A program made the translations under genes and the position numbers. The notes below the pieces were generated by a model. The model did no database searches. It saw nothing but the letters and a program-made list of their open reading frames with translations, and was not told where the DNA came from. This document shows positions 1,478 through 58,976 of a stretch of DNA of 64,000 nucleotides, piece after piece. Source of the DNA: an uncultured Erysipelotrichaceae bacterium (GTDB lineage: Bacteria; Bacillota_I; Bacilli_A; RF39; UBA660); NCBI GenBank assembly GCA_902791625.1, contig CADAWN010000001.1:35333-99332 (forward strand). Reading direction: 5' to 3'. The number at the start of each line of letters is the position of its first letter. Position 1 is the stretch's first letter.

Positions 1478-4027
1478 TTAATAATACTAAGGTATATACT
1501 CTATTTTTGCTTTATTAAGCAAATCAACAAAACCCCAATATAATGGCGGATAGTTAATCCACATATAATTATTAGAATTCCACCACCATTCATTTATATC
1601 TACTCCTAAGAAAGAAAAATATCTATCTAACAGCTTTAAAAACTAAATTTCATATTTTTCAACTCTATATTTTTTAAAACTATAATAAATCAACTTAGTT
1701 AACTCTGTCTAATCTAATTTTTCCTCTGAATACGACTATGGAAAATCAGGTTGTTCAAAATCCCCATCCCAAAGTCTAAATTTAATAAGTTCTTCTAATT
1801 TTGATAAATCATCTGTATCAGTTTGTTTTTCTTCAACAAGTCGATTATTTATTTCTTTAAGTTTTGTTGGATTTCTATTAGGATACTAATTTTCAATAAA
1901 ATCTTTTATAGTCTTTTTATATACTTCATTATAATTAGTTCTATTATTTTCATTAGTGCTTCCCCAGAAGAAAGGTCTAGCATCTAACCATCTTTTTCCA
2001 CCCCAAACGTCTTCATCTACTATTGGACTTATATCTATTAAAGACCAACCAGGTGGTAACTAAAACCAATGTCCTTTTTCAATATTATCAGTAAAACTAA
2101 TTTTTTCTTTATTAACTTTATAGAAATTATGCTGATTTAAAGGATTAACAATATTATCTTCTTCCCATTTTAATTCTCTTTCATTATACAACATTCTACT
2201 TTCAGAGTCAAGTATTAAGGATACAGAGTCGTTTATTTGAGATTCCATATTTTTATCGCAACCACAATCTATATTTAATATTTTATCGAAATTATTATTG
2301 TTAATATCTAGATAATCAAAAGTACAATACTATGGCAAATGAGTAATGTTAAAATTAAATTCACCATAATTTAAATCATTAGTTTGTCTAATATATTCCT
2401 ATGGATTATTTAAAAAATCATAAACAAACTCTTGATACTCACTATCATTTTTAAATATCTTTTTATCAGCATCTTCAATTGTATCATTATAATCTTTATA
2501 TCTATCTAAAATAGCTTCTTTTAATGTTTTCCAATATAATTCATTTCTTTCATCATCGGTAATACACTAATCTCTAAGTTCTTCATATCTTTCAGCATAT
2601 TGCTCACCTTGTAAATGATTAAGGAAATGAGTATTATCAGACATTAGTAAGTTTGATTGTTTATAAAATAAACGAATAAAATAACCAAGTTTTTTCTATG
2701 GTACTGGCTCGGCTATATAGCAATGCCGCGGCGCAGAGTAACCTAAATCAGTATATATTGTAGAATCTTTATGGTTATCTTTAATTAAGTTTATTAAATA
2801 TTTCTAAATTTCTGGGTCACCATTAATATCCATCTTAAAATCTTGTTGTTTTAATTGCCCTAAAACTTCCTATTGTTTACTTTCATCTAAATTGTCTAAG
2901 TGCAATTTAGTAGCTAATTTATCATCAGTTAAAGACTAAAGTTGCTCTGATAAATAATTACTAATTTTAAAGTAATGGGTTCCATATTTATATTGTTCTT
3001 CATCTTCTAATCTAAAAGTACGTAGACCAATCCAATCAACAGCCTAATCAATTGTTAATCTCTAAACATTATATCTACTTATTCTAAAAGTATAATTTGT
3101 ATTACCTCTAAAAGTATTAATTAGATTACTAAGATAAAGTTTAAAATCAATTGGTATATCACCAGGATTATAAATTAAAATTCTATTACCAATAGCAAAA
3201 TTCTTTTTACTTGGGCCTATATCCATATTATAATACTAGGCTTTATTGTATTGCGGCATATAAATTAGTTCCTAATCATAATCAAGAGTTGGAGTAGTTA
3301 ATAACTTTGCCGCGGTTTGCCAACGTGGAATATTATCCCAATAATTTCTTACATCAATTATAGTTTTAGTTCCATTTGGAGTATTAAAAAATAATTCTCC
3401 ATTCTAAACCTATTCTATTGTTGGATAGCCGCCCTTCCAAGGGGTTTCCATATTGTTAATAGTATTATAATGTTCTTTAATAGTTTTATTTAGCGGCGGC
3501 ACTGGGTTATTAATAGCATATGTATCTTCACTTGGTTTAATAATTGATTCTGGCGGAGTACATTTATAATAATCTGCCGCGCGCACTATATATTTATTAA
3601 AACAAAAAGCATAAGGATGATACATAACAAAATCAAAGTCACATTCACCTTTATAAACTCTTTGATTAGTTTCTTTATTTAAAAAACACACATAGTTAAA
3701 AGCAGGGGCACGACTTAATTTTGCACGATAAACTTTATATGGTTCTTCATCAAAAACTAAATCTTTTAATTTATCAGTTGCGAATATTTGACGAATTTTT
3801 CTTATTGTATATTCATCAAGATTATCAAAGGCTGTTTTTACTGATATTGTTCTGCTATTATATGTTTGTCCAAAATAATATTTTCCATTTCCACCTGGGA
3901 CATCCACCGAGTAATCCGTAGGCTCTGGTAATAAATTTTTATTAAATCTATCGCCAGAGGAAACTACGGTAAGGTGGAGGTCCTTAATATGAATGTTACC
4001 AAAGCGAAATCCTTTAAAATCACTCAT
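1478..4027 (-). CDS. Distal tail protein (Dit-like N-terminal domain) with a long C-terminal extension, about 849 codons, many sense TAGs
   Basis: Track ORFs 3410..4027 and 2060..2248 share one frame. I translated 2249-2745 and 3236-3410 by hand and saw only TAG interruptions. The true stop is TAA at 1478-1480. The N-terminus (MSDFKGFRFGNIHIKDLHLTVV..) resembles the siphophage Dit family, and the gene follows the TMP. Confidence 0.6.
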
Positions 4028-4048
4028 ATCTAAAACCTCCTTTTTATC

Positions 4049-7000
4049 TTATCGTTTCTTTAAAATTACATTGGAGCCAGTATATTTTGCGGCTTCAACT
4101 ATACGTTGTTCTACTTTATTCATTGCTTCATCGAGATCATAATCGTTTGCTATTGAATCAACATGAACATCAATTTGAATTGTTGTATCACCTATTGTTG
4201 TCGTAGGAAGTTGTTCTTGATTAACTGGTTGTGAAAGTATTGGTAGGTCTGCAAGTATACGTGCAGCCTCACCTATGCGGCGGGTATCTTCAGCACTTAA
4301 GAACGCTTCAGGACGAGAACGAGAGCCGTCAACCCAAGCAGGACCAGTAAAGTTTACAAGACCACCTTCTGCGAAAGCTAGGTGATTTTTAAGATATTTA
4401 TTTCGATTAATTGAATCAGTTGGTGAATTTACTTTTGGGGCATTGTCATTTATATATTTTTCAGCATCTTCTGGACTTCTAGTCATTTTTTCAACTATCC
4501 ACTTATTATCTTTTAAAAGTAATACTCCATGAACCCAATTATCAGCTTTTGTTCCTTTCTATGATTCAGGAACATATAATGTGTCACTAACCTAAGTATA
4601 TGCATTACTATAATTTGAAGTATTATGTCTTCTTAATTCTTCTGCACTAGTAAAAACTTTATACTAACCATTTCTTTCTCCTACTACAATATCTGGTTTA
4701 ATTTTAACTTCTTTATTTTGAGACGCCGCTGCTGCAGCATAATTAGAATAAGTTCCACCATCGGGAGTTTTATAAGTAGGTTGGGTAGTAGTATTACTTG
4801 AAGTACTATTAAGTTTTGTATTATTCATATGTCTACTAAGTTCTTCCATAGAGGTATAGGTACTTCCATCTGGTCCCTTATAAATCTAAGTAACAGTCTG
4901 CTATGGCTTACTCAATGCTTCTTTATATTTCGCAGCAATATCATCAAATGCTTTCTTAGATTCATTAGCAGCATCAAGGGCAGCCTATAAAGCTTCTTTC
5001 TATTTAGCAACTGCATCAACAGCATCTGCTAAAGCTTCTTTTGCTTTTTTAATTGCTTCTTTATATTCATTACCTGCTTCTTCTAAAGATTTACTAGCTA
5101 ATTCAGTAATACCTTCAGAGGTTGTTCTAACTATTTCTTCAGTTTTATCTGCAACATCTTTTAAATTCTTTTCAGAATTTTGAATACTTCTTAATACTGT
5201 ATCATCAACAGAGGCAACATATTCAGTCTTCTTTTTAAATAATTCTTTCCAATCCTCTTTTTCTTTAAGAAGCTTTTCGTCGCTCATTTTCTCCATATCG
5301 GCGACATTTTCTTTCCACCAGTTAACTAATTCATCACTAGTCTAAATTTTCTAAAGAGCTTCTGTTGCTTCTTTCATCAATGCAACATCATCAATTAATG
5401 TTTCTTGATAAGTTATTTCTAATTCTCTCTATTCTTTTTGTAATTCATAGAATTCTCTTAATTTTTCAATAATATCATCAACAGCACTATCTAAAATTGA
5501 TGTTCTATCATCTTGTACTTCTTTTTCTAAAGACTTAACTTCTACTGCATTGCCACGAGACGTATCACGACGTAATAAAGCTAATTTTCTTTCTTTATTC
5601 TCTAAATCATTCCAACTTCTTTCCTAGTCTCTTAATTTTCTTTGTTTATCAATATTTTTCTATAAAGCATTTAAATACTAATCATCAGCTTCATTCATTG
5701 CTTCATATTTAGTTCTTAAATCATCAATTTGCTTTTGATATTTTTCTCTTAAAACTTCAATCATTTTATCTTGAAGTTCTACATATCCATCCAAAGCTTG
5801 TCTCTGATGCTCTATAAATTCTTCATTTAACTATTTAACTTTATCATCATTATCCCATATTTTTGTTAAATATTCATTAGCTTTTTGTCCCTAAGTTTCA
5901 ATCCATTTTTTCAATGCTTCGGGCATTTTTGCTTTTTGCAAAGCATTCATATTAATTTTAGTACCAGTTTTTTCATCAAATACTAAATAATCGGCAAGAT
6001 TAAATTTCATTTGCCCACTATCTTCAAAGCTTTTGATTAACTTAGCAACATCATTATTATAAACTCTACCAATATTGTTATATGCAGTACGATAAACCTA
6101 ATTTTGTGCTTGAAGTTGAGCTTTTTGGTCTAATAATCCTTGTCCATATACCGCAAAATTTCTCTTTGCAGCATCTATTGTACTAGCTTTTTCTAAGTCC
6201 TTTTTGGCTCTTTCAGTTTGTTTTGTTAAGAAGTCAAGTGCGGTATTATAATTATACATACCATCAAGAGAACTTTTCCAATTAGTACCTTCTATTGTTG
6301 CTTTAAGCTCTTTTTGTTTTTCAGCAACAGTTTCAATTGCTTTTGCTAGAGATTTTTGAGCATCTGCTACTGCTCTAGTTTTGTCTTGCCAGTCTTTATA
6401 AGCTTTATCTCTTTCTTTTTTAAAATCTTCAAGAGTTTTTGTATATGTTTTATAAACTTGGTCTATTTTATTTTCGGCGCCTTTAGCCATATTAGCTAAA
6501 GATTGAATATAATCTTTATTATCTAAACTTTTTTGTAATTCTGCTCGTTGAGTTTGAATTTGTTTTAATCCAGCATTTAAATCATTTAAAGTACCAGAAT
6601 TTATTAAAGCAGTACCATTATCTTTCCAATCTATATCATACTGTGCTGATATATCTTTCCAATCTGCATTATTACGTAAAGCATTCTATTTTGCATATTC
6701 TTTGGTTAACTATTTCTATATTCTATAATTTTCTTGTTCTCCTTGACACTAATTAATAATACTTCGAATTAAGGATTCTTTTTGGTTTAATTGTTCAATA
6801 CCATTTTTAATTTGAGCTTCGATTTCTTTTGTTATTTCACTTTCATTAGTGGCTTGTTTTTTTACATCTTCATTTAATGCTTCAACATTGACCTAATAAT
6901 TTCCTTTTTCATCTGTATAAATATAGTCAGCGGGGTCAAGTTTTAATTCTTTTATTGCATCTTCAATTTTATCTTTATCAAGATAGTCAATAAAACCATT

Positions 7001-10000
7001 AGTAATATTTGAATTAATCGTATCTATTGCTGTTTTATAATTAGTAATTATTTTATTATATTTTTCTTTTATTTCTCCTTCTATTTTAGTTAAGGCACTT
7101 GTACTTAATACAGAAAAATCCCCTAAATTAGAATTTTCTAATTCATTCAAATAATTATTTACAGTCTTTTTTGCTGCTTCTTCTCCAATCTTTCCATCAT
7201 CAATAGCACTCTAGAATAATTGCATTAAAGTGTCTCTAGCTTCATTTTTTGTCATACCATCAAGCTATGATGGATCAAACTATAATAATTTATTTTGTAA
7301 TTCTGGAGTTAAATTAAAACTTTTTATTGTTTTTACAAAACCTTCATATACTTTTCCTAAATCGCCACTTTCTCCAAATTTATTTATTAAATTCTAAAAA
7401 ATTTGTCCTTGTGACTCTATAACTTCAATAGGAAGATTTTTAAAGGTTTTTGAGTTTGTTAAATATAACTTATTTAATAATTCCTCATACTATTTTACTT
7501 CTTCTATTGGAAAAGTTGCATTTAAAGTAAAATCAGTTACACCTAATTTTTTTAATTCTTCAATTTTATTTTTAAAATCTTCTATGTTGTCTTTTGAATA
7601 TTTCTTCTAATAAGTTTCTAATGCTTCATTCGATTTTCTTTCTTTTTCAGTTTGTCCCTCATTAGCCAATTCTTTATAAACATTAGATTTATATAAAGCT
7701 TCAAATTTTTCATTCAAGAATTTTTCTAATCTATCATAATCATTTTCTTCTTCATATTTATCATATTCTTCTTTAGTAACTCCAGCTTCCTCTAAAATAT
7801 TTTTTGTATTAGTACTTAAATTCTTCCAACTAGTAAGCCCCCCAATAAACTGCGCCCAATCTCCTATCCAAGCCTTACTAAAAGCACCAGTTTCTCCATT
7901 ATAATACTTTTCTCCATAATCAGCATCAAAAAGAACTCTATTTAATTTGTTTTTTTCAGAAGAACCTTCATAATGCTAAGTATCTGCTTGTTGCATTATT
8001 CTTTCTGCACGTATTCTTAATTGAGTATCACTTAACTACTTATTCTTTTCTAAACTTTCATTATTTTTTCGTAATTCTGCTAATACAGTTTCATAAGTAT
8101 CTCTATCCTCATTATGAGAATTACTCATATAACTAGCTTCAAAATCTTGTAATGTTGTATGAATCTACTATAATGTTTCTTCAGAAGCTTCATTCTTTCT
8201 AGCTAAATCTTCAACAGATTTTTTAAAATCTTCAATATTAGAACTATTTACATTTGCAATATCTATACTTAAATTTTTCTAATCGCTAGAAGATAAACTT
8301 AAAGAATTTTTTAAATCTGAATAATATTTATTTTTTATATCAAGTTCAGATTTTTTATTTACTAAAGTATTATTATAGAACTACTCTTGTAATGCTGCGG
8401 CACTCTACTATTTTTCTAATTCGGTTAAAGTCTTTTTTCTCTATTCTAATAACTAATTATTTAATTTTATTTTTCCTGTCTCTTCATCGTAAGCGGCAAT
8501 TAAAGAAGGATAATTCTCCTTCAAATTGCTAACTAAATCGCTATATTTCTTCTATTCATCCTCGGTTAAAACAACTTTATTTTTTAATTCATCATACTAT
8601 TTCTTTATATTTTCTAAATCTTTTATTGTATTTTGAGTACTTCTAGCTTCACTCTATTTCTGCTCCAATTTAGAAGTAGATTCATCCAAAGCTTTTTGAG
8701 CATTTTTTACTTGCTATTCGATAGTTTTATTTAACTCTTTTGCAGCATTTGTTTTGATAAAATTAGTTATTCCAGCTATAAAAGCAGAACCAAGAGTCGC
8801 CCCAACAGCAAGTATTGCACCATGTGGGCCGCCCATCTAGATTCCTGCCATAATATTTGGAATCAAAGAGGTACCTATTGATGCAATAACAGCACCACTA
8901 GTTGTATTAGATGCTAAACCAGATGTAATTCCAGCGGCTATACTTGTAGATATTGCAGTGCCTATAGCTTGCCCTTTTAATATGCCTTTTGCTCTAGCGT
9001 CCTCGTAAGCACGATCTATATCTTCTTCAGATGCATTTTCATTATTATTTTTATATTCTGTTGCAAAATCAGTTTTACTTTTAGGTGCAAACTTAGAACT
9101 TATAAAATTAGAACCCATAGTAAGAGTTCCACTAATAGCTTTTCTACCAAGAGTCAACCATGTTGCACCAAGTGCTACTAATCCACCAGTTGACAAATCA
9201 TTTAATTTTTCTAAAAAACCTTTAAAATTATCAAGAGTATCTTTATAAAAATCACTAGTTAATAAGTTAGTCTTAAACTATTCCCAAGTATTAGAAATCT
9301 ATTTCATTCTATATTCAACAGTATCCTAATACTTAGCAAACTGTTGACTACTTCTACCTGCTGAATTCTACGCAACATCAACCAATTGCATTGTTCTCTC
9401 ATAGTTTTCCATAAGAGCGATAAATCTAGATTGTTGTCTTGAACCTGCAGCAATGGTTGCAATATATCTCTAACTATTTCTATCAAGAGTCTTCCATTTG
9501 CCAGATAATTCAAGTAATACATCATCCATATTTCTGAACTAGCCAGCGGTATCTTTTAATGAAACTCCAACACTTTTCAGTGCTTTATCAACTTTATTAT
9601 AATCTAAATCATCAAATTCACTATCAGCAGTTCCAGCAACATTATTTTTCAATTCTGTAAATCTTGCAAGAATTGTCTTCATTGCAGTACCAAGATTTTT
9701 CGGAGCTTCCTGTGTTGCTTCTACCATAGTTGCAAGCATTGCGGTAGTTTTTTCAAAACTCATACCTGCAGAGTTTGCGATTGCGGCAGTAGCACTCATA
9801 GCTTCAGAAAGACCTTGTACGTCAACAGCAGCATGTGCTGCAACTTCTGCATATACATCAGTTACGTGTGCACCTTCGCTCATATCCATATGGAAAGCAC
9901 GAAGTGCCGCGGTCATTTGGGATGTAGCGTCCTTAAAATCCAATCCTGCTAATGTAGCAAGTTTCATTGTCTCTTCAGTTAACTACATAACCTCATTAGT

Positions 10001-11467
10001 TTTTAAACCTTGTTGATAATAAAGTGCAGATGCTTCAACAACACTCTTAGTACTTTGTCCGAGTTTATTAGCCATAGCAGCATATTGGTCATATTGTGCC
10101 CACATATCTTTAACACTATAGCTTGTAACCATTGCAATAGAACCAAAGGCTTTATCTAAATCTTTAATATCATTAAAAGTAGACTTAACTACATTTCTTA
10201 ATGCTCTCCAAGAAGTAGTAACAGAAAGTACTTGTCTTGCTCCTTGACCAATCCTGTTAAATCCACTTTCTATAGATTGCTAAACGCTTACATATCTCTA
10301 GGCTTCTGCTATAATCTATTTTCTTTTATTAATTTCAGAATTACCAGCTTGTTCTGCCGCAGTTCTTTCTTTATTTATATTATCGGTTGTTGTTTTTAAC
10401 TGGTCTCCGTATTTTTTTTCAGCATCAGCTTGCTAATTAATAAGTTCTATTCTTCTCTATTCTCCACTCTAATATGCCTAAACATCTGTATCATTAACAA
10501 GACTATTACTAATATTATTAATTGCATCTCTACGTCTAGTAAAATCTCCCTTCTTATTTGGGTCTATACCACCTTTTCCACTCTTTCCACCAGGCGTATT
10601 TAAACCTGCGTTAGCAATTTTTTCCATGTCCTAAGCAAACTATTCCTAAACCTCATCTGCATTAGTAACTTCAAGTTTATACTTTCTCATTACTTCTGTA
10701 AATGCCTTTAGAGCATCTTCAGCAGAACCAGTTTTCTCCATAGTTTTCTAAAGAACTTGCTAATATTCTTTTTGTGCCGCAGTCTATGCTGCAGCAGTAT
10801 CTATTACTCCTTTTTTGGCTAAATTTTCTCTATTGGCATCTCTACCTTTTTTCGTAGCAACTCCAAACTCAAAGTTACCTGTACCAGTAGTTGCTAAAAC
10901 TTTCTATCCTGCATCAGAACCTATTGCAGCTTTACTTATATCCTACTATAATGCTTTGGCTTTTGCTACTGTAATATCATCAACTATTTTCTTATAAGCC
11001 TCGGCATTGCCAAGTGCTTTCTTTAGCTAATTAGTTTCTTCTTTATCAAGTTTTAGTTTACTAGCTTTTGCAGTAATCTAACTAGTAGCAATTTTTCTTA
11101 ATTCATCCTATTTTTTAACTAACTAATCTAACTAAGAAGCATATTTTTTTATTTCGGCATTTTGTTTAGCATAATTATTAGCATCAGCAAAACTTGTAGC
11201 TTTTACATTTAAAATGCCATAGGTCTTTTCAAGTTGATTAACTGTTCTTGTAAAATCTCTTATATCAGCAGCGTTATTTAATCCTTTACTTAACTATGCT
11301 AACATTTGAGTTGTTAATTTTTCTGCCTTTTCAAGTTCTTTGTCATAACCTAAAAGCATTTTATCTCCGATACCGCCCTTCGCAGCCTCATCACGAATTT
11401 TCTTAAATGAGGCAAGTATGCCATTGGCATCAAATTCGCCTCGTATTTTTATTGTTTTATCTGCCAA
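4049..11467 (-). CDS. Tail tape measure protein, about 2472 codons with TAG read as sense
   Basis: Seven track ORFs (4049..4486, 4664..4849, 5000..5296, 6098..6490, 6893..7150, 8837..9196, 9539..9967) share one frame. The start is TTG at 11467 after GAGGTGAG, with an in-frame TGA just upstream. There is a TP901-type TMP core (KLATLAGLDFKDATSQMTAALRAF..AMKTILARF), long coiled-coil stretches and a C-terminal GGLVNFTGPAWVDG motif. Confidence 0.85.
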
Positions 11468-11481
11468 ATTAACTCACCTCT

Positions 11482-48909: not shown

Positions 48910-48990
48910 ATATACAGAGTTAAGGGAAAAGCCCTTAAACAATAAAGTAAAGAGAGCCGAACTCAATAAAACGGAGAAAGTAGGTAAATT

Positions 48991-50158: not shown

Positions 50159-50790
50159 ATGGCAAAAAAGAAATTCTATATGGTACTTGATACCGAAACG
50201 GCAAACGGACTTGATGACCCTCTTGTTTATGATATAGGTTTTGCAATCATAGACAAAAAAGGTCAAGTCTATCTTGAAAAATCCTTTGTTATTTACGATA
50301 CTTTTGTTTTGATGAAGGACTTAATGCAGACGGCATATTATTCCGAAAAAATCCCACAGTATGAGGATGACTTAAAAAACGGTAAAAGAAAACTTGTTAC
50401 CCTTGCAACCGCACAATCAATAATTGCATATAACCTTAAAAAGTTTAATGTTAGTGCGGTAATTGCCCACAATATGAGATTTGACTATAACGCCCTTAAT
50501 ACAACCCTCCGTTATTTAACTAAATCTCAAAAGCGTTATTTTCTCCCCTATAATACTACAATTTGGTGCAGTCTTGCGATGGCACGAACAACAATAGGCA
50601 AACAAAAAACGTATCAACTTTGGTGTAAAGACTTACTGCCGAAATTCTCTACCGATATATAACAGATAATAACGATTTTATCGAAAGCCATACAGGACTG
50701 GAGGACGTTCTTATCGAAAAGGAAATTTTTGCACATTGTATTCGTCAACACAAGAAAATGCAACGCACATACTGGAAGGAAACGGCATAA
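50159..50790 (+). pseudogene. DEDDh exonuclease copy 2, disrupted by a frame-shifting internal deletion
   Basis: Residues 1-160 align with copy 1. After LWCK the frame breaks (stop at 50660-50662). The rest (RLTAEILYRYITDNNDFIESHTGLEDVLIEKEIF..WKETA) continues in another frame to TAA at 50788-50790. About 34 nt are missing relative to copy 1. Confidence 0.6.
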
Positions 50791-50975
50791 GCCGTTTTCT
50801 TTTTTATTTAATTAGTTAAATTTTTTAACTGCGGCACAAGGTGTCGCATTGTTCACAGTTCAGTAATAATTAAATCTTTTTACTAATTAACAAAAACTTT
50901 AAAAAATAACTGTTGACATTTAATAAAATCTATGCTATACTGTATATAGAAAATAAAAAGAAAGAAGGTTTTAAA

Positions 50976-51167
50976 ATGGCAACTTTTACAGTACGTTTTA
51001 TCCAGGAGTATACCTACGAGGTGGAGGCAAATGATGTTGATGAGGCAATAGATAACGCCGAGGAAGAGTTTAGTTTTGATATGTGTTCACCAATAGCCAA
51101 TACTACATGGGACGAAATGATAGTAGAAGATGAAGATGGAGAAGAAGTCGCACATGGATATATGTAA
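50976..51167 (+). CDS. Hypothetical acidic protein (63 aa)
   Basis: ATG follows AAGAAGGT. The upstream part of the track ORF is promoter DNA. Confidence 0.6.
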   Translation: MATFTVRFIQEYTYEVEANDVDEAIDNAEEEFSFDMCSPIANTTWDEMIVEDEDGEEVAHGYM

Positions 51168-51182
51168 AGGAGGTTAAAAATA

Positions 51183-51416
51183 ATGAATATTATTACTGCA
51201 CCAAGATACCAAGATTTTAGCGGACATATCCATAAAACAAAAGAGGATTGTGTAAATGCAGAAAAGAATTTTAAAGAAAATATTATTCAGACATTTAAAG
51301 AATTGGCAAAAGGTTGTAGAAATCAAAAAAATTGTAAAGATTGTCCTTTTCAACATGAAATTAAATGTTTTTTTGGTGAAACAACAGGTGAACTTCCAAT
51401 ACACTGGGATATTTAA
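51183..51416 (+). CDS. Cys-rich small protein (77 aa), paralog of 51810..52064
   Basis: Track ORF with AAAGGAGGT upstream. It shares the blocks PRYxDFxGxIxxTxxxCxNAExNF..FxELAKGC. Confidence 0.65.
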   Translation: MNIITAPRYQDFSGHIHKTKEDCVNAEKNFKENIIQTFKELAKGCRNQKNCKDCPFQHEIKCFFGETTGELPIHWDI

Positions 51417-51609
51417 GAAGGGGATACCCCTTCTTTTTTTTATTTTAATTAGTTAAAAAATTTAACTGCGGCGCAAGGTGTCGCGGCATTCATATTCTCT
51501 TAATAATTAAAACAACTAACTAATTAATAAAAATTTAATTTTATTTCTATTGACTTTTAATAAAAACTATGTTATAATAAATATAGAAAATAAAGAGGAG
51601 GTAGTCCAA

Positions 51610-51804
51610 ATGCTAACTATTAGAGATTTAATCTGTCAAGGTGCCGACCTTGATATGCCAATCTGTGTATTGGCACGAACTCATGATGAAAAAGGTAACT
51701 GCACAGGCGTATACTATTCTTATGCTGAAATACCATCGGACAATTTCACAATTGTAGATGGTATACTCACTATAATGACAGATGTTAATGATGTAGGAGG
51801 TTAA
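51610..51804 (+). CDS. Hypothetical protein (64 aa)
   Basis: ATG follows GAGGAGGT. The upstream part of the track ORF is promoter DNA. Confidence 0.6.
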   Translation: MLTIRDLICQGADLDMPICVLARTHDEKGNCTGVYYSYAEIPSDNFTIVDGILTIMTDVNDVGG

Positions 51805-51809
51805 AAACA

Positions 51810-52064
51810 ATGAGAGTAATCAATGAACCAAGATACGAAGATTTTAAAGGAAAAATCTACAGGACACAAAAAGAGTGTATAAACGCAGAAAACAACTTTG
51901 TAGAAGATGTTTTCCAGTTGTTTGAAGAATTGGCAAAAGGTTGCGGAAAATATGGAGCCGAGTGCAATGGTTGTCCCTTTTATGATAATAACTTAGATTA
52001 TTGTTCTATTCAAGCAACAACAGGCGATGCACCAGCAAATTGGATATTTAAAGAAGGGGAATAA
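51810..52064 (+). CDS. Cys-rich small protein (84 aa), paralog of 51183..51416
   Basis: Track ORF with GGAGGT upstream. Confidence 0.65.
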   Translation: MRVINEPRYEDFKGKIYRTQKECINAENNFVEDVFQLFEELAKGCGKYGAECNGCPFYDNNLDYCSIQATTGDAPANWIFKEGE

Positions 52065-52276
52065 TCCCCTTTTTTATTTATTTAATTAGTTAAAAATTTT
52101 AACTTTCTTGCTCTGTCGCAACGTTCACAAATCCTTAACATATTACAAAACTATGAACATAGCGTCCGTCCATTTGGTTAAAACATTTAACTAATTAACA
52201 AATCCTTAACATCTCCCATGATCGAACATACGTTCGCCTCCACCATTGCATAATCTATCTATCCCCCTTCCATAAT

Positions 52277-52397
52277 CGAGCTGCAGCTGTCGAGCTACAA
52301 TCGAGCTACAGTTCCATGCGAGCTGCAAGCTGCGGCAATCAACGAGCTGGGGCGGCACTTTAGTTAAAATTTTTAACTAATTCTCCAGAATCGAGCT
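52277..52397 (+). repeat. Six CGAGCT(R)CA repeats where the two transcription blocks converge
   Basis: CGAGCT occurs at 52277, 52291, 52302, 52319, 52343 and 52392. Confidence 0.8.
52360..52380. repeat. Perfect copy of the 21-bp palindrome TTAGTTAAAATTTTTAACTAA
   Basis: Read directly from the sequence. At least 17 further near-copies lie between 40.7 and 54.5 kb and are listed in the findings. Confidence 0.85.
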
Positions 52398-52408
52398 GCA
52401 ATAAAAAA

Positions 52409-52435
52409 GATTGACTTTATAAAATAAAGCCAATC
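52409..52435. terminator. Bidirectional hairpin terminator between the convergent blocks
   Basis: GATTGaCTTTAT-aaa-ATAAAGcCAATC, flanked by A/T runs. Confidence 0.55.
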
Positions 52436-52465
52436 ATTAATATTTTACTCAAAAAATTCTACTAT

Positions 52466-53224
52466 CTAATTATTTAACAAATCATTCTTTAAGTCCTCAG
52501 AAATCTTTTGTCCCTCTGTATTCAAATACTTAACCGCTTCTCCGCCATTGGTATAATAATTAACTGACTTTAATTCAAATACACTTACTTTTGTACCCAA
52601 ATTAGTCGTTTCAATTGTAATTGTATAGTCTATTAAATCAAGTTTTTTAAGCCATATTAGCCCATTAATAATAGCTCTATTATTATCTCTATCTTTACTA
52701 AGTTTTAAAAGACCCCTTAAGTCTGCAATTGTAAATACCCTATCACAAGAACTCATATAACAAAAACGTTCTTGCATTTCTGCTAATAATAAATATAGTT
52801 TCAATTCCTACTCAGAAACGGCATAGTCATACTAAATTCTATTTAGTGTTTCTCGCGGCATAATACGATAAGGAGTTGCCTTTGGAATACTGTAGTAAGT
52901 CGCACCATCTTTCTTACGTAACATAAATTCTTTATCCCAAGTTAGGTCTAAGTGCCGCGGCCCTTCGTATTTTATTAAACCATGTTGTTCCAATAGATTC
53001 CAGTACTTTTTAATAGTATTTGGATGCATATGTAATATTTCTTTTATTTTATTAACAGTAAAGTCTTTATGTGAGAATACTCTAGGTTTATTCTTTCCAT
53101 TAAAAGTTGAAATTGAAACCAAGTATACATATAATCGCATTGAATTCCTTTGTACTTCAACTTCATCTGAAACAATCGGTAAGTTTTCTCCTGTGGCTTT
53201 TAACTGTTTTTCATTATTACGCAT
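52466..53224 (-). CDS. Replication-initiator-like protein (two winged-helix-like halves) joined across two in-frame TAGs
   Basis: Track ORFs 52832..53233 and 52466..52804 are in the same frame. They are separated only by TAG-YDYAVSE-TAG (TAGs at 52832-52834 and 52808-52810). The second half has no usable RBS. ATG at 53224 follows AGGAGGTGA, and iterons lie immediately upstream. Confidence 0.5.
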
Positions 53225-53323
53225 AAATATCACCTCCTATTATATAAGTAGGATTGAAAGACTTTTTCTCTAAAAAAATCTACACCGATTAAGATTTTAC
53301 TATAATGTTTTATTCATCTTCAT

Positions 53324-53421
53324 TTTTCCTTACTGAATCTTCACTTTTCCTTACTAATTTATCAGTTTTCCTTACTGAGTTTATCAATTTTCCTTACTGA
53401 ATCTTCACTTTTCCTTACTGA
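53324..53421. repeat. Five iterons TTTTCCTTACTGA at 21-22 bp spacing
   Basis: Copies start at 53324, 53345, 53366, 53388 and 53409. Confidence 0.85.
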
Positions 53422-53589
53422 AATCGGCTTACATATAATAGATTACTCTTTTACGAAAGAGTAAGCAGAAAAGTTGTCCTTTGTCGGCCTAAAGGACCAA
53501 AGGCCGCTCGCCACTTCGTGGCTCACTTCAAATCAAAAGATAGAATAACTAGGATTAAGGATAGGGGTATTTATTTTATTTAAAAAGTT

Positions 53590-53697
53590 AGAACCCCTAT
53601 TTATTATACCCCGTTTTATTATAACCCCTATTTATTAGAACCCCTATTTACTTTGAGGTAACTAAAATTTACTATGGGTAACTAAAATTTACTATGG
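53590..53697. repeat. Additional origin-region repeats: (A/G)ACCCCTATTTA x3-4 and GGTAACTAAAATTTACTATGG x2
   Basis: Read directly from the sequence. The tandem 21-mers are at 53657-53677 and 53677-53697. Confidence 0.8.
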
Positions 53698-53903
53698 ACT
53701 TAACTAATTTTTACTTTGTGCCGCCCTCCATAAGTCAAAACCAAGCGACCCCTTATTCCTAACAACCCCTATGTTTTGTCTGGGATAATGGGCCGCGGCG
53801 CAGCGTAATTCCAAAGCGGGGCGGCAAATTAGTTAAAATTTTTAACAAAATACCCTCCCCTATTACAAAACCTCTTTAGTTAAAAATTTTAACAAATTCA
53901 GTA

Positions 53904-53933
53904 ATAAAAAAAAGAGATACCTTTCGGTATCCC
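53904..53933 (-). terminator. Intrinsic terminator after paralog 3
   Basis: On the minus strand, GGGATACCGAAAGGTATC is followed by TCTTTTTTTT. Confidence 0.7.
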
Positions 53934-53966
53934 TTTCTTCGTTACTCTTAGTCATTATCCTTTGCC

Positions 53967-54230
53967 TTATAGAGCAATAACTGCTACCTTAGCAATCTTA
54001 ACACCAAGAGCCTCAGCAAGCTCAGCAGTACCATGAACCTTGCCGTCTCCAAGAATAGTATTGAACTGCTCAACAAGAGGTCCGTTAATCTCTGCTTTCT
54101 TCTCTGCTGCCTTAGCTGCTCTCTTGCTATTTACCTTATCAAGATTAGCAAGTCCAGCCTTAGCAAACTCCTTAACCTCAGCCTCAACGTTAGCATTAAC
54201 AATAGCCTCAAAAAACTCTCTCTTAGTCAT
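53967..54230 (-). CDS. Small winged-helix-like protein, paralog 3 of 4 (87 aa, shorter)
   Basis: Track ORF trimmed to the ATG (MTKREFFEAIVNAN..) after GAGAAAGAGGT. Confidence 0.65.
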   Translation of the reverse strand: MTKREFFEAIVNANVEAEVKEFAKAGLANLDKVNSKRAAKAAEKKAEINGPLVEQFNTILGDGKVHGTAELAEALGVKIAKVAVIAL

Positions 54231-54839
54231 AATGTACCTCTTTCTCCTAGTCATTACTAGGTAATTAAAATGTTGATATAACTTATTAGACTTTCAATCG
54301 AAAGGAAGTAAAGAGAAGAAACGAACCCATTTTGCGCAATATTTATGCGTTTTTATTACTTTTTAGTGGCTTTTTTCTCTTTTTTCTTCCTTTCTCTCTC
54401 TTTTCTATATATATTATAGCAAAAATTTTAGAAAAAATCAACCATTTAACTTTAAAAATTATTTAAAATTAAAGTTAATTAGTTAAAAATTTTAATTAAT
54501 TCGTTTTTTAGACGAGAAAAGTTTATTTTATAGGAAAATTTAACGCCTTACGGCTATTGATTACACTTATATGCCGCGGACAGGTATTGGATGGGATTAG
54601 GGAAAGATTAGGATTGGAAGAGAAATACTCCTTTATTAATATATTAATATATTATATTAAAATATTGACTTTTAGTGTTTGTTTGCGCACACACAAAATT
54701 ATAGTATTGTACACTATTCTATACTATTGTTAACTATCCCTATTTTTGACACTATGGAGAGCTCCTCCAGGGGATAGGCATTAGTCTTACTTAGTAGTAT
54801 AGATGCCCTCTTAGATTATTGTTTACACTTTTTATTTAC

Positions 54840-55030
54840 GTTTTCCTTTTACTACTTTCCTTTTCTTTTCTTTTTTTTCTTCTTCCTTCCCCTTCCTTTC
54901 TTTTCTTTCTTCTTTTATTATTATATTATTATTATATTATTATATTATTATTATATTATTATATTTATATATTATATTATATTATCTTCCTTTCCTTCTT
55001 CCCTTTCTTCTTCCCTTCCCTTTCTATAAT
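54840..55030. repeat. Homopyrimidine (CT-rich) tract, then (TTA/TAT)n, then a second CT-rich tract
   Basis: Read directly from the sequence. The track ORF 54819..55136 over it is a low-complexity artefact. Confidence 0.8.
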
Positions 55031-55074
55031 AATAAAAGAGTTTAGATTAAATCTAAACTCCTTATTAATTAATA

Positions 55075-55854
55075 TTAATTATTTAAATACTCTTGATATA
55101 ATTCTTCCAATAACTCTTTATATAATATTGAATTAATAGAGATAGAAATAGAATTTAATTTTAAAATTGAATTAGTTTTAGTAGTACCTTTTATTTCTTT
55201 AGTATCTATAATTCCTTCTTTATTTATTTTATATCTATATATCTTCTTTAAACTAGGATAATAAGAATTTAATACTGATATAAAAGTAGAGTAGTTAATT
55301 AAATTATTCTTAATATAGTAATAATAAATATTTAAACAATAATATCTTAAACAAATATTATATATATATCGTTTAGTTTTTTCTTCTTCTTTCTCTACTT
55401 TATTCTTAAAATCCTTAGAAATAACTAAATTCCTTATTAAAGTCTTTTTATAATCTTCTTTTTCTTTTTCTTCTTCCTTAATTAAATTAGGACGTTTTTT
55501 ATTTATATTAGTTAAAGGACGATAAGAATTAACTCTATTAGAATTTATATCTATATTATGGGAACTTAATTCTAATCCTCTTTTACTCTCTGGTTCTTTA
55601 GGGAAGAGTTCTTTTCCTTTATAAAGAAGTTTTGTTTTAAGAACTTTATCTACATAAAGTTTTAATTCAGCATTAGTAGAAAAATCTACTACTCCTACAA
55701 ATTCAGTATAAAGAGTATCTTTATTTGGGTAACGCTTAAAACTAGAAAACTCTTTTAAATTTTCTTTTGGATTAAAGTCTTCTATTTCATAAGTAGTAGT
55801 TTTTTGTTTTGTCGTAAAAGACCAATAATCTTTACGATAGAGATTATATTTCAT
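55075..55854 (-). CDS. Hypothetical protein (259 aa), extremely AT-rich and Lys/Asn/Tyr-rich
   Basis: Track ORF with AAAGGAGGT upstream. Its composition differs clearly from its neighbours. The hairpin AAAGAGTTTAGATTAAATCTAAACTC lies downstream. Confidence 0.55.
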   Translation of the reverse strand: MKYNLYRKDYWSFTTKQKTTTYEIEDFNPKENLKEFSSFKRYPNKDTLYTEFVGVVDFSTNAELKLYVDKVLKTKLLYKGKELFPKEPESKRGLELSSHNIDINSNRVNSYRPLTNINKKRPNLIKEEEKEKEDYKKTLIRNLVISKDFKNKVEKEEEKTKRYIYNICLRYYCLNIYYYYIKNNLINYSTFISVLNSYYPSLKKIYRYKINKEGIIDTKEIKGTTKTNSILKLNSISISINSILYKELLEELYQEYLNN

Positions 55855-56006
55855 TTTAATTTTACCTCCTTTTAGAGAGCCTATTTAATCCCTAAGTTAA
55901 CCTTTCGGATTTTACCTGCTCTCTTTAACTTTCATATATTAAGTATCTTCTATCCCAACTTTTTCTAAAATTTTCATAACTTTTAATAAAACCTGAAACT
56001 TTAGGT

Positions 56007-56414
56007 CTACTTTTTTATATCGTGATTATAGTATTCTGTAAAAACATTCTGTGCCGCGAGTTGTAAATAATTTGCATATGCCTCTTCATAAACATCAGGT
56101 TCGGTATAGACAATTTTTATTGATAAATCCCTAAAATCTTTCATAAGACCTTTATTCTCTTCTTTTGCTTTCTCAATCCACTTCTGCCGCGGCTTATTAT
56201 TCCAAAAGAGTTGAGCAAAGATTTCTTTTAATCTATACCCCATACATTTTGAACGACCTATAAAGACTTTAGCATTAGGAAAGGTTATAATAAAAACTCC
56301 TTGTCTTTTATATCCTACCTTTATAAATAGATATTCATGCTGTAAATCTCTAACATATTGTTCTAACTTCTTTTGTTCCTCAACAGTTAATTTTATTTCT
56401 TTAAAATTATCCAT
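56007..56414 (-). CDS. GIY-YIG-like nuclease-domain protein (135 aa)
   Basis: GVFIITFPNAKVFIGRSKCMGYRLKEIF matches the GIY-(x9)-YIG-x8-R spacing of GIY-YIG nucleases, with GVF and FIG as the variant forms. Confidence 0.45.
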   Translation of the reverse strand: MDNFKEIKLTVEEQKKLEQYVRDLQHEYLFIKVGYKRQGVFIITFPNAKVFIGRSKCMGYRLKEIFAQLFWNNKPRQKWIEKAKEENKGLMKDFRDLSIKIVYTEPDVYEEAYANYLQLAAQNVFTEYYNHDIKK

Positions 56415-56664
56415 TATATAAATCTCCTAATTCCTCATCTCTTGGTAGTATTGACCAAGTTACTCTATCATAGATATACTCTACCATTTCATCATAATTC
56501 AATATAGATTGAGTAGCTAGAACTTTAATTAGTAAATCAACAGCGTCAGAATTTGGATAGTCATTTATATCACTATATTTATATAATATCTTTAAAACTT
56601 CACAATTACGCTTAACGATATGGATTGTTTGGCGCAGATAAATTATAAATTCTTCTTTTGTCAT
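56407..56664 (-). CDS. Hypothetical protein (85 aa)
   Basis: Track ORF with AAGGAGGT upstream. It overlaps the next gene by 8 nt. Confidence 0.6.
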   Translation of the reverse strand: MTKEEFIIYLRQTIHIVKRNCEVLKILYKYSDINDYPNSDAVDLLIKVLATQSILNYDEMVEYIYDRVTWSILPRDEELGDLYNG

Positions 56665-56738
56665 TATATTACCTCCTTATATTACTCGGTGCCGCGCTCC
56701 AATATTTAAAGCAAAACTTGAAGGGCGGCACATTGTTA

Positions 56739-57221
56739 TTATTCATCATCATAGTGAGTATTTTTCTTAATACCTTTTGGAGTTACTAAGTCAATTTTAG
56801 CCAAATCTTCAGTAATTCTTTTATACTCCTTATCAATTAAATACTTATCAAACCCTCTAACGAGTTTTTCCACTGGTATGCCATGATAAGTTAAAACATA
56901 ATCTTTCTCATTCTCTAATACTGTAATAGGAATAGTATTAATTGTTTCAAGAGCTTTAAGAACTTCCTTTTTTCTAATAAAGATTGACCTCCAATTGCGA
57001 TATTCCTTGGATGGTATTTCACATATATACTCCTTTTGTTTTAAACAGTAGGCAATATAATCTAATATATCCTGAACATCAGCTATATCTTTTGTTGGTA
57101 CAACGTGACGATAATTTCCGTGTTCGAAGCCGAGTTCTCCATTTACATTCTGAAAACACGCACATACATCAGTATTAATCATTTTAAATAGTTCATTATC
57201 TTTCTTAAGTATTATCCACAT
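56739..57221 (-). CDS. Hypothetical protein (160 aa), paralog of 57285..57683
   Basis: Track ORF. The shared blocks are LDYIxxC..C, LTYxGxPVExL and LxDK. Confidence 0.6.
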   Translation of the reverse strand: MWIILKKDNELFKMINTDVCACFQNVNGELGFEHGNYRHVVPTKDIADVQDILDYIAYCLKQKEYICEIPSKEYRNWRSIFIRKKEVLKALETINTIPITVLENEKDYVLTYHGIPVEKLVRGFDKYLIDKEYKRITEDLAKIDLVTPKGIKKNTHYDDE

Positions 57222-57284
57222 ATTTTATTCCTCCTTATTCAGTGCCGCGACTACAAAATTTACTGCAAATTACTAAGCGCGGCA

Positions 57285-57683
57285 TTACGTATCTTTAAAA
57301 ATTTCTTTTTTAAAATTATTTAAAGCTTCTTCATCTATATCATCAAAAGTATCAAGACCTTTAATATATTCTTGACAAATCTTATCTAAAAGTTGTTTAT
57401 TACATTCCTTATAGAGTTCTTCTACTGGTACTCCCCTATAAGTTAAAATATCATTGTGGTATCTAGTATATCGTTTATTATCAAAATCACAAACTTTATA
57501 ATCATTCTCCATACAAAAATCAATATAATCTAAAAAATCTTTATAATCTGAGCCTTTTAAGTCTACTTCAACAGAATGTCCTGAAGTAAAAATAATTTCA
57601 AGAATATTATAATCACTATCTTTTTGTTTTATAAAATCAACATTATCCATATTTATTATACCTTTTAAATTTCTAATTATCAT
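57285..57683 (-). CDS. Hypothetical protein (132 aa), paralog of 56739..57221
   Basis: Track ORF trimmed to the ATG (MIIRNLKG..) after AAGGGGGAAG. Confidence 0.6.
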   Translation of the reverse strand: MIIRNLKGIINMDNVDFIKQKDSDYNILEIIFTSGHSVEVDLKGSDYKDFLDYIDFCMENDYKVCDFDNKRYTRYHNDILTYRGVPVEELYKECNKQLLDKICQEYIKGLDTFDDIDEEALNNFKKEIFKDT

Positions 57684-57700
57684 TATTCTTCCCCCTTTTA

Positions 57701-58420
57701 TTAACCTTTCCAATAACAATATAAACAACCAGAAGGGCATCTCTTTTTATTATTCAGTAACTCAGTTTTTCCTGCACAGCAAGCACAAGACTTTCTTTGG
57801 AAACCACCTTTTTGAATAGTAGAAGTATCAAGACCAAGAATTTTATAATCCTTTTCACTAATACAACCAACTTTATCTGGCAAATCTTCCGCACAGGCTT
57901 CAAAAGTATAATACTTTCGATAAGGTTCTATTGCTTCTAAAACATCATCTATCATGTATTGTGGAGCTTTAAAGGTTTCAAAAGGAACTCTTTTATAAAC
58001 TTTATAAATGCGTTCTTTAACATAACTATACATATCTATAATAGAATATCGACATCTATTAATTCCTAAATCTTCAAAAAGTGTCCAGGGTGCTATAACG
58101 TGTTCAATTCCTATTCTTGTTGGAATAATAGGATCGGTTCTAAGGACTATATGATCTACTGGAAAACCTGCATCTATAAGTTCTCTTGCTCCTTGATATA
58201 CATCATATGTTTTAGGAACATTAGGTTCCATCTCTGTATGACCATAACCAGTACAAGTAACATGAAGTATAATTTTATCTTTATTTTCTATTAAAGCTTG
58301 AATAAGCTTAGAATTTGAACAAGTAAGTTGTTTAGTAATAATAATATTACCTTTTAATAATTTATCTTTCCAAGATAAATCCAAGCCAGCATCTCCAGCC
58401 TCAGTTATTCCAAAATTCAT
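57701..58420 (-). CDS. DUF1848-like protein with a Cys-rich C-terminus (possibly Fe-S)
   Basis: The C-terminal ..QRKSCACCAGKTELLNNKKRCPSGCLYCYW matches my recollection of the DUF1848 (PF08902) Cys motif. The gene appears translationally coupled to the upstream gene (TAATG). Confidence 0.5.
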   Translation of the reverse strand: MNFGITEAGDAGLDLSWKDKLLKGNIIITKQLTCSNSKLIQALIENKDKIILHVTCTGYGHTEMEPNVPKTYDVYQGARELIDAGFPVDHIVLRTDPIIPTRIGIEHVIAPWTLFEDLGINRCRYSIIDMYSYVKERIYKVYKRVPFETFKAPQYMIDDVLEAIEPYRKYYTFEACAEDLPDKVGCISEKDYKILGLDTSTIQKGGFQRKSCACCAGKTELLNNKKRCPSGCLYCYWKG

Positions 58421-58734
58421 TATTCTTCCTCCTTAGATAATTTATTCCAATACCTATCAATAATAGCCTGCATATTTTCACGTCCAACCACATTTTGAGT
58501 ATGGAGTCTAATAGGATAATGTCTTTCAGTTTCTGCAAGCCAAAGAACTAATTTTATTCCGTCTCCACCATCATAAGCATAGTCGCCAAGGTCGTGATCA
58601 AGGTCAAGAACTTCAATCTCTATCCCACGTTCTTCACACTCTTGAATGTAGTATTTTGCATCATTTACAGACGTACACCAATAGTATCCATCAGGTGCTA
58701 CTCTTATATCATCAAGCCATATTTTAGCAAGCAT
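58420..58734 (-). CDS. Cyclic-phosphate-processing receiver-like (cREC) domain protein
   Basis: IWLDDIRVAP..VLDLDHDLG..IRLHTQNVVGRENM matches the cREC/REC-like pattern (WLDD.R.P...LDHDLG...H..NP.G) as I recall it. Its own promoter TTGACTTTTTAAACTTTTTATGATATAAT lies near 58770-58800. Confidence 0.5.
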   Translation of the reverse strand: MLAKIWLDDIRVAPDGYYWCTSVNDAKYYIQECEERGIEIEVLDLDHDLGDYAYDGGDGIKLVLWLAETERHYPIRLHTQNVVGRENMQAIIDRYWNKLSKEEE

Positions 58735-58976
58735 ACTATTTTCCTCCTTTTTTATCTTTCTATAATAATTATATCATAAAAAGTTTAAAAAGTCAAATTA
58801 TTTTATCAAAAGTAAGTACAATAGATAATCTGGTATTGTGAACAGTGCCGCAAAGTTAAGAATTTGTTTACAATTTTCTGCCGCCGGCAGCAGGTAGTGT
58901 CAGGGAGATACCTGTAGTCGCGGCAAAGCATAAAAAAATAGCCACCCTTTTGAGTGGCTATCTTACTTCTTATTTT

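Follow-up and report, generated by a model that had tools for sequence, protein, structure and literature searches.

The 64,000-nucleotide (nt) stretch of contig CADAWN010000001.1 analysed here (the window) is part of an SPbeta-like gut phage of about 170 kb that is AT-rich and reads TAG as glutamine, and it carries a short GC-rich word, GCGGCA, far in excess of expectation. Counted on both strands, this hexamer occurred 72 times compared to 4.15 expected (~17-fold; P=9e-62) and was the top hexamer of the window. The enrichment acts on the DNA, not on the protein that it encodes. By analogy with phages that carry the Chi words of their hosts, we tentatively take a Chi-like word of the host of this phage to be the likeliest reading of GCGGCA, and infer that a host nuclease would recognise it.

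The original prediction had singled out the heptamer CGCGGCA. Expectations for this heptamer were obtained over the whole window and both strands from 100 dinucleotide-preserving shuffles and from Markov models of orders 0–2 and 4–5. CGCGGCA had 22 exact copies, compared to an average of 0.34 in the shuffles (0 of 100 reached 22) and 0.4–0.9 under Markov orders 0–2, and the predicted over-representation (22 vs 0.34–0.9) persisted under proper backgrounds, including a shuffle of synonymous codons (see below). All 22 predicted copies exist, although two lie slightly away from the positions first given (56185 rather than 56195, and 58919 rather than 58921). Markov orders 4–5 already gave 12–21 copies; since these orders predict most copies of the heptamer, the signal sits in the shorter word GCGGCA (72 vs 4.15). 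The true unit is thus the hexamer, and CGCGGCA, first taken for the unit, is a subset comprising about a third of its copies. The base 5' of GCGGCA was T in 28 copies, C in 22, G in 14 and A in 8.

The signal was sharply specific. The degenerate core GCSGC occurred 106 times vs 12.2 expected, and single-base variants of GCGGC(A) were found at 0.4–2.5 times expectation, except for the overlapping words GCGGCG and GCCGCA. Among all-G/C pentamers GCGGC ranked highest (8.7 times expectation), the next few (4–5 times) overlapped it and others reached at most ~1.8 times; a general clustering of GC-rich words was rejected, as other all-GC pentamers were at or below expectation. GCGGCA is asymmetric, with a 3' A in 68% of copies and a 5' T in only 36%, and the palindromic form GCCGCGGC accounted for only 5 of the 106 GCSGC sites. 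It is therefore a short asymmetric word, as Chi words (5–8 nt) are, and with its asymmetric flanks is not the palindromic word of an element like the highly iterated palindromes of cyanobacteria (HIPs). A longer form, (T)GTAGTCGCGGCA, was confirmed as predicted at five sites (28709, 33240, 33639, 57243 on the minus strand, and 58914), with one-mismatch versions at 33165 (minus strand) and 33024; AGTCGCGG occurred 7 times in the window. Scanning a viral collection for TGTAGTCGCGGCAC yielded 120 hits ascribed to chance, for the most part in phages that are unrelated and richer in GC; none was in a close relative. Nothing relevant on GCGGCA as a phage motif was found in the searchable literature, in which this word and its family-wide variants appear to be undescribed.

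Synonymous codons were shuffled within genes so that protein sequence and codon usage were preserved. Coding sequence held 41 copies of GCGGCA, compared to 7.6 on average and at most 14 after shuffling. A further 30 of the 72 copies lay in the ~13 kb (~20% of the window) outside the open reading frame (ORF) set, where 0.9 were expected (~30-fold enrichment). Five of the six frame and orientation classes were each enriched 4–11 fold. Ala-Ala was encoded by 28 coding copies, as GCG GCA or T GCC GCN; a T stood 5' of GCC-GCN in 17 of 20 cases, and after GCG came GCA in 11 cases and GCT in none. Because the enrichment extended over five of the six classes and the flanking bases followed the hexamer, it is not a protein or codon-pair effect.

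Under the same synonymous-shuffle null, GATC, AGCT, CATG, GATATC and CAGCTG were strongly avoided, with coding counts of 2 vs 41 expected for GATCT, 0 vs 17 for AGATCT, 0 vs 10 for CAGCTG, 0 vs 11 for GATATC and 0 vs 8 for ACATGT; GGCC and CCGG stood at 0.2 of expectation (five-fold depleted). This depletion of palindromes is a signature of restriction avoidance, and the avoidance of GATC was also present in relatives. GCGGCA did not show the depletion of a restriction target under avoidance: GATC, AGCT, GGCC and CCGG were depleted 3–20 fold while it was enriched 17-fold. AGCT avoidance accounts for the loss of GCA-GCT codon pairs, but not for the rise of the rare codons GCC and GCG. Avoidance of GCWGC-type restriction sites was considered and rejected, as GCTGC was not depleted and the deficit of GCAGC lay mostly in the AGCT-containing GCAGCT.

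Copies were found throughout the window, most densely in its early region. The late/structural module (1..34860), with genes on the minus strand that are readable only with TAG as a sense codon, contained 31 copies (21+/10-; 0.89/kb; 1.97 expected in total). The early region of many small transcription units (34861..60500) contained 41 (17+/24-; 1.6/kb; 2.1 expected in total), and right of the window the density fell to about 0.4–0.5/kb. Early-region copies stood mostly in the stretch of spacer that follows a terminator and precedes the next sigma-70-type promoter, 50–150 nt upstream of promoters (50–147 nt from predicted -35 elements) and in both orientations. They thus showed neither the fixed distance nor the fixed orientation to a -10 element or start that marks a promoter element, and their orientation varied among otherwise homologous spacer modules. 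Many had a 'TKAAC-N3-RCG' repeat unit 0–12 nt away or the palindrome AGTTAAAAWTTTTAACT next to them. The orientation bias claimed in the original prediction disappeared on counting (9+/13- for the heptamer, p=0.52; 38+/34- for the hexamer, p=0.72). The shared orientation of all five heptamers in 1–17 kb had a post-hoc p of 0.06, and the hexamer in 1–20 kb was divided 7+/9-. That interpretation is therefore partly supported: the enrichment holds, and the skew does not.

The word is a property of the phage family. The major capsid protein has >1,700 relatives in public metagenomes, many on 150–180-kb contigs from animal guts, and in all close relatives (55–93% capsid identity) GCGGC was at 5–8 times and GCGGCA at 5–13 times expectation. 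A relative with 80% nucleotide identity (L126) kept 10 of 17 sites, including all five extended copies (core GTGCCGCG); its coding sites exchanged GCWGC and GCSGC in both directions, and it had six sites of its own. Copy number is thus maintained rather than positions. Among distant relatives retrieved through the capsid protein (L139, L141, L144, L148, L171, L176, L177, L186 and L003) the top GC-rich pentamers differed and again occupied both strands: TGCGG in L176 (40 vs 6.2), CGCGG in L177 (31 vs 2.5), (G)CGCGC in L144 (40 vs 5.2) and L171 (75 vs 14.8), GGCGC in L139, and CGGCG plus CCGGC in L003. The palindromic doublet TGCCGCGGCA recurred among relatives. The original prediction was to fail if the motif proved equally common, and unskewed, in unrelated AT-rich phages, and this check did not refute it: the unrelated AT-rich Staphylococcus phage K had 0 copies of GCGGC in 50 kb, and 11 kb of SPbeta had 4 vs 3.3 expected. 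A link to TAG recoding was rejected, as standard-code and TGA-recoded relatives (L137, L142, L145 and L152) were equally enriched. Genome contigs gave no lead to the host: only phage contigs came up, and their assignment to metagenome-assembled genomes of such diverse groups as Melainabacteria, Clostridia and Bacilli is unreliable.

In Firmicutes, the Chi words already known include AGCGG (Bacillus subtilis), GAAGCGG (Staphylococcus aureus) and GCGCGTG (Lactococcus lactis). Known host Chi words were counted in three control phages: Staphylococcus phage K (KF766114; L125, L205), SPO1 (FJ230960; L204) and Lactococcus phage 949. In phage K, GAAGCGG was the top heptamer (20 vs 0.48 expected; 13+/7-), and all 20 copies lay in the long terminal repeat, which is 8.5 kb in length and carries small early genes (1–8486; 139832–148317), with 20 in each repeat and none in the 83 kb examined outside the repeats; some stood between a promoter -35 and -10, and some formed inverted hairpin pairs such as GAAGCGGtcaaCCGCTTC. 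In the 13-kb terminal redundancy of SPO1 (1–13185), its host-takeover region, AGCGG was the top pentamer (46 vs 9.4; 29+/17-), at 3.5/kb compared to 1.1/kb in the next 37 kb. No description of GAAGCGG in phage terminal repeats or of Chi clustering in K and SPO1 was found in the searchable literature. Phage P1 is known to carry 50 E. coli Chi sites on both strands (31/19), denser near its ends (bioRxiv 10.1101/2021.07.08.451572).

GCGGCA resembles host Chi in P1, K and SPO1 in being a short asymmetric GC-rich word on both strands and, as in K and SPO1, top-ranked and concentrated in an early multi-promoter region (1.6/kb early vs 0.9/kb late, the pattern of a phage-borne Chi cluster). Like the phage K word, it occupies spacers and the inverted pairs of hairpin stems, and it includes GCGG, as do the Bacillus word AGCGG and the Staphylococcus word GAAGCGG. 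Different words in different lineages of the same family would be the behaviour expected of host-specific signals, and the words of the relatives resemble the Chi sequences known from Firmicutes. It is this shared anatomy with known host Chi in K and SPO1, the turnover of sites with a kept total, and the replacement of the word by other GCGG- or GCGC-type words in related lineages that lead us to the Chi-like reading. Among the roles suggested in the original prediction this one gained the most support, by way of analogy only, and a terminase site cannot account for 72 dispersed copies.

If this reading is right, a host helicase-nuclease of the AddAB/RexAB type would switch at GCGGCA from degrading linear DNA to a recombination mode. 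The phage would accumulate the word on both strands wherever coding permits, mostly as Ala-Ala pairs and especially in early spacers and hairpin stems, so that an enzyme entering from either DNA end would soon encounter a copy in the right orientation. Linear DNA, on injection or during replication, would in this way escape degradation and be directed into recombination or concatemer formation, and AT-rich spacers could accommodate both orientations at little cost as inverted pairs in hairpin stems.

Several observations weigh against a Chi function. Chi is defined by properties of the host, where the present reading would predict that AddAB/RecBCD recognises GCGGCA and that the chromosome carries it in excess and skewed with replication. 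An orientation-dependent Chi would be expected to show a strand polarity towards the DNA ends of a phage. GCGGCA had no orientation polarity in the window (38+/34-), and its orientation was inconsistent across syntenic loci of relatives (3+/13- in L003 vs 16+/8- in L132); Chi in K (13+/7-), SPO1 (29+/17-) and P1 (31/19), however, also lies on both strands. Unlike Chi in phage K, which was absent outside the repeats, it was also present in late genes, with ~5-fold enrichment. GCGGCA also includes a subset with a longer conserved core: five copies carry GTGCCGCG at positions kept in L126, which Chi function does not require. Many of the early-region copies may be paralogous, having arisen through duplication of spacer modules. 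Finally, Lactococcus phage 949, of the same broad terminase lineage, had 0 copies of GCGCGTG in 100 kb; a phage without its host's Chi indicates that Chi loading is common and not universal. The lack of polarity, the late-gene enrichment and the long-core copies are left unexplained by the Chi reading.

Alternatively, a DNA-binding protein encoded by the phage, such as a genome organiser or a regulator of the early-to-late switch, could recognise GCGGCA as its site or half-site, with these sites concentrated in early spacers and at the start of the packaging/structural operon. We consider this rather unlikely. It would fit the placement of 30 of 72 copies in the ~20% of the window outside the ORF set (0.9 expected), the position of the word 50–150 nt upstream of early sigma-70-type promoters, its location 0–12 nt from the GCG of ~15 of the 42 'TKAAC-N3-RCG' units and beside the palindrome AGTTAAAAWTTTTAACT, the conservation in L126 of the positions of the five extended copies (28.7 kb, 33.0–33.65 kb), and the recurrence of TGCCGCGGCA in relatives. 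However, 6 bp is too little for a specific regulator, the spacing to promoters is variable, orientation flips within homologous modules, and both the all-frame enrichment and the fast turnover in coding sequence are unlike operators; furthermore, no candidate protein was found among 37 window proteins compared with Pfam and 8 compared with PHROGs. Matches of the repeat units to the consensus LexA, CcpA and CodY operators were only partial or half-site and were set aside.

It is also conceivable, and in our view unlikely, that the word is no host signal and belongs to a phage-encoded genome-identity system, spread over this very large family of gut phages, in which each lineage writes its own GC-rich 5–6-mer (GCGGCA, TGCGG, CGCGG, GCGCG, GGCGC) to be read by a matched phage protein. 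That protein could be a nuclease to which marked DNA is immune, or part of a drive that couples a methylase with repair.

A molecular drive of the latter sort, in which a cytosine methyltransferase together with Vsr-type T:G repair preserves or creates GCSGC sites against AT-ward mutation, is improbable as a full explanation in its own right. A suggested parallel is HIP1 (GCGATCGC) of the cyanobacterial iterated palindromes, a short GC-rich word at ~1/kb, lineage-specific, in coding and non-coding DNA and in all frames. GCGGCA is like HIP1 in all of these features (about 1 per kb), but it is not a palindrome, the palindromic GCCGCGGC has only 5 copies, and no methylase was found among the window proteins scanned. 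The sharp specificity, the equally populated strands and the turnover of sites at a steady count would follow from such a drive; the words of relatives are halves of the classic C5-methylase palindromes GCGCGC, GGCGCC, CCGCGG and GCCGGC, and the deamination neighbour GTGGCA was mildly low (4 vs 9.1). SPbeta-group phages encode multispecific C5-methylases, including GCNGC, and the GCSGC core matches restriction/methylation sites of the GCNGC/GCSGC type (Fnu4HI, TauI). Phages deplete restriction targets (GATC, AGCT, GGCC and CCGG here; GCGGC in phage K, at 0), whereas GCGGCA is enriched. The asymmetry of the word (3' A 68%, 5' T 36%), the lack of enrichment of GCWGC and the high count of another deamination neighbour, GCGAC, argue against the drive, as does the normal outcome of cytosine methylation, which is loss of a site and not gain. 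The scanned proteins of the window (64 of ~170 kb) included neither a DNA methylase nor a Vsr, and just beyond the window there is only a generic class-I methyltransferase. The DNA uptake sequences of Neisseria and the uptake signal sequences of Haemophilus are bacterial signals of 9–12 nt driven by uptake bias; GCGGCA is like them in its frequency (~1/kb), both orientations, toleration in coding frames and intergenic inverted-pair hairpins, and an uptake-type drive is not known from phages.

Inverted pairs TGCCGC...GCGGCA less than 100 nt apart numbered five, used 9 of the 72 copies and yielded four hairpins. The most stable was a long hairpin at 33155..33262 (minus strand; base GTGCCGCGACT / AGTCGCGGCAC; -45.6 kcal/mol, z = -9.1) with heptamers at 33165 (-) and 33245 (+), between the YonG-like gene and ORF 33275–33583, which takes the place of yonH in the SPbeta gene order; this pair was retained in L126. 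Two intergenic pairs directly preceded a gene's ribosome-binding site and start codon: GUGCCGC...GCGGCAC at 56680..56742 (minus strand; heptamer 56690-, partner GCGGCA 56725+; -21.5 kcal/mol, z = -4.0), ahead of gene 56407–56664, and TGCCGCG-N28-CGCGGCA at 57232..57296 (minus strand; heptamers 57243- and 57278+), a weak fold (z = -1.0) ahead of gene 56739–57221. The intergenic hairpin TGCCGCC...GTAGTCGCGGCA at 58868..58935 (plus strand; 58879- and 58919+; z = -3.3 on the plus and -2.7 on the minus strand) adjoined a bidirectional terminator, and a weak hairpin GCCGC ... CGCGGCA (z = -2.3) was found in an early intergenic spacer at 44978..45027 (plus strand; heptamer at 45020). These hairpins might suggest that GCGGCA is a preferred GC clamp of intergenic RNA or DNA hairpins, such as processing sites, attenuators or terminators, as three of them clearly beat shuffles (z -2.7 to -9.1, with a fourth marginal at z = -1.0) and two stand just upstream of a ribosome-binding site. 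We regard this as very unlikely, because no more than 9 of the 72 copies belong to inverted pairs, no fold was obtained for the solitary extended copy at 33644 (z = +0.2), 41 copies are coding and in both orientations, and most early-region terminators use other stems. No Rfam family matched: with Rfam covariance models only a tRNA passed the gathering score, and the hairpins gave sub-threshold generic miRNA-like hits. A tRNA-like mini-helix reading of ...CGCGGCACCG was rejected, since T-arm pairing was absent.

The least probable explanation, largely refuted, is a by-product of codon-pair effects and restriction-site avoidance, in which avoidance of AGCT (beside GATC, CATG, GATATC, CAGCTG, GGCC and CCGG) pushes Ala-Ala to GCS-GCN, as the deficits of GCA-GCT (1 vs 12) and GCA-GCN (11 vs 30) might indicate, but the permitted pairs GCT-GCT, GCA-GCA and GCT-GCA were not raised, frames other than Ala-Ala were ~10-fold and non-coding DNA ~30-fold enriched, and the flanks of the codon pairs followed the hexamer.

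About half of the heptamers are coding, as originally predicted: 12 of 22 lay in ORFs, as Ala-Ala, Pro-Arg or Cys-Arg codons, and these ORFs need TAG as sense. In the late module, the Dit-like ORF 1478–4027 carried three on the minus strand in the sense direction, at 2724..2730 (CCG CGG CAT, within the palindrome GCCGCGGC), 3308..3314 (GCG GCA, Ala-Ala) and 3575..3581 (Ala-Ala). Another sense Ala-Ala copy on the minus strand was at 9905..9911 in the 2472-residue ORF 4049–11467, a candidate tape-measure gene by its size and its place directly upstream of the Dit-like gene. A third such gene, the tail-tube paralog 15681–17666, had a minus-strand sense Ala-Ala copy at 16866..16872 that was absent in L126. 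Two plus-strand copies were antisense in the 5' parts of genes and kept in L126, namely 28714..28720 (extension TTTGTAGT..C) in the YonD-like ORF (GGT GCC GCG) and 33024..33030 (AGTCGCGGCA) in the YonG-like ORF (TGC CGC GAC); in distant relatives TGCCGCGGCA occurred ~8 codons from the site equivalent to 33024 in the same YonG-like gene. The solitary extended copy at 33644..33650 (plus strand; TTTTGTAGTCGCGGCAC) lay between ORF 33669–34856, which takes the place of yonJ in the SPbeta gene order, and the next gene, and L126 kept its core, not its flanks.

Early-region heptamers included 49399..49405 (minus strand), in a repeated spacer module TGAACATTACGACC-CGCGGCA-AT-AGTTAAAATTTTTAACT, and 51482..51488 (plus strand), in a spacer module 15 nt after GCGGCG and adjoining the palindrome AGTTAAAAAATTTAACT. 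ORF 52445–53224 carried an antisense copy at 52854..52860 (plus strand; ATG CCG CGA) and a sense copy at 52953..52959 (minus strand; CCG CGG CAC, within the palindrome GCCGCGGC). An intergenic copy stood at 54572..54578 (minus strand), and ORF 56001–56414 had two minus-strand sense copies, at 56052..56058 (Ala-Ala) and 56185..56191 (CCG CGG CAG, within the palindrome GCCGCGGC).

The assignment of the window to an SPbeta-like phage draws on its late genes. Under the standard code the left 35 kb was nearly without long ORFs, and with TAG as sense minus-strand ORFs of, among others, 2472, 849, 661 and 652 residues appeared; the TAG codons aligned mainly with glutamine in standard-code relatives. 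ORF 4049–11467 had 71 in-frame TAGs, while the major capsid gene (25386–26531), the tube gene (19734–22082) and most early genes had zero. TAG as sense was also needed by scattered ORFs outside 1–34860. In PHROGs, late proteins of the window matched the families of the portal, the large terminase and the distal tail protein, and the Pfam families YonB (major capsid), YonD, YonG, YomU and YomW matched the syntenic genes of a close relative. A megablast search of 15 kb against isolated phages gave no match. Four consecutive paralogous genes at 14344–22082 had a common N-terminus (MNIFEQYGIKEVADVT...); two of the four matched the same PHROG structural-protein family, the syntenic genes in a close relative matched Pfam YomU_Tube, and of the four only 19734–22082 was TAG-free.

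The late operon has a consensus sigma-70-type promoter, TTGACT-17-TATAAT (34860–34990), directly upstream of its first TAG-rich gene, 33669–34856. It was preceded by TTAGATCTA repeats containing AGATCT, which did not occur in any coding sequence. The idea of a late promoter read by a YonO-type RNA polymerase was rejected, as the SPbeta leader is a 1.7-kb non-coding region that has no resemblance and the late operon here has its consensus sigma-70 promoter; a two-part motif, TGCCGCGACTACAAA-N18-ACATAAG (candidate second box ACATAAG at +18), was not kept in L126. The YonO promoter is undefined in the literature (PMC5467207). In SPbeta (L129, NC_001884) 59153–60833 is a 1.7-kb gene-free stretch between yonN and yonK, which has no counterpart in the window.

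The early region (35–60 kb) had ~25 sigma-70 promoters close to consensus and about as many terminators, and its spacers were built from repeated modules. Spacers at 36000–52200 contained a repeat unit of approximately 'RTTAcnnaanTA-TKAAC-ANT-GCG-ATAG', with 42 copies of the core pattern, often in tandem at 35–36 nt; in the same interval TGCGATAG occurred 16 times vs 0.7 expected, 15 of them on the plus strand. The palindrome AGTTAAAAWTTTTAACT (17 bp) stood in early spacers directly after terminators. A dense short-repeat array beside the start of the late operon (35700–36400), with at least 6 TGTGAACAAT-like words as well as 'TATTTTAGTAT/TAAAGTAT' units in tandem, is a possible origin or regulatory hub; contigs of several relatives ended ~1–4 kb from the equivalent place. 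Clusters of CGAGCT(A/G)CA repeats at 52280–52450 and 36300–36360 contained the otherwise avoided AGCT and were interspersed with GCGGCA copies; they flank ORF 52445–53224, which showed a possible helix-turn-helix by eye and had no Pfam hit. Neighbouring genes at 57701–58734 encoded a DUF1848 domain and a cyclic-phosphate-processing receiver (cREC_REC) domain, and 47661–48113 encoded a 5'-nucleotidase/PNKP-phosphatase-like protein; these genes may have RNA-repair or nucleotide-metabolism functions. The sole tRNA gene in the window was a tRNA-Arg (anticodon ACG) at 63200–63275 (minus strand), and no suppressor tRNA was found within the 64 kb.

If GCGGCA is a host Chi-like word, the genomes of these phages would reveal recombination-hotspot and nuclease-control sequences of uncultured gut bacteria, which at present can be found only experimentally. 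From the differing pentamers across >1,700 capsid relatives one could then chart the nuclease specificities of hosts, with possible use in predicting them, and large TAG-reassigning phages would be seen to rely on host-signal mimicry besides restriction-site avoidance. Should each lineage instead write its own word as part of a genome-identity system, the word would represent a self-marking signal of a kind new to viruses; and if the word is read by a phage protein rather than by the host, GCGGCA would be an unrecognised genome-wide signal in a very abundant group of phages.

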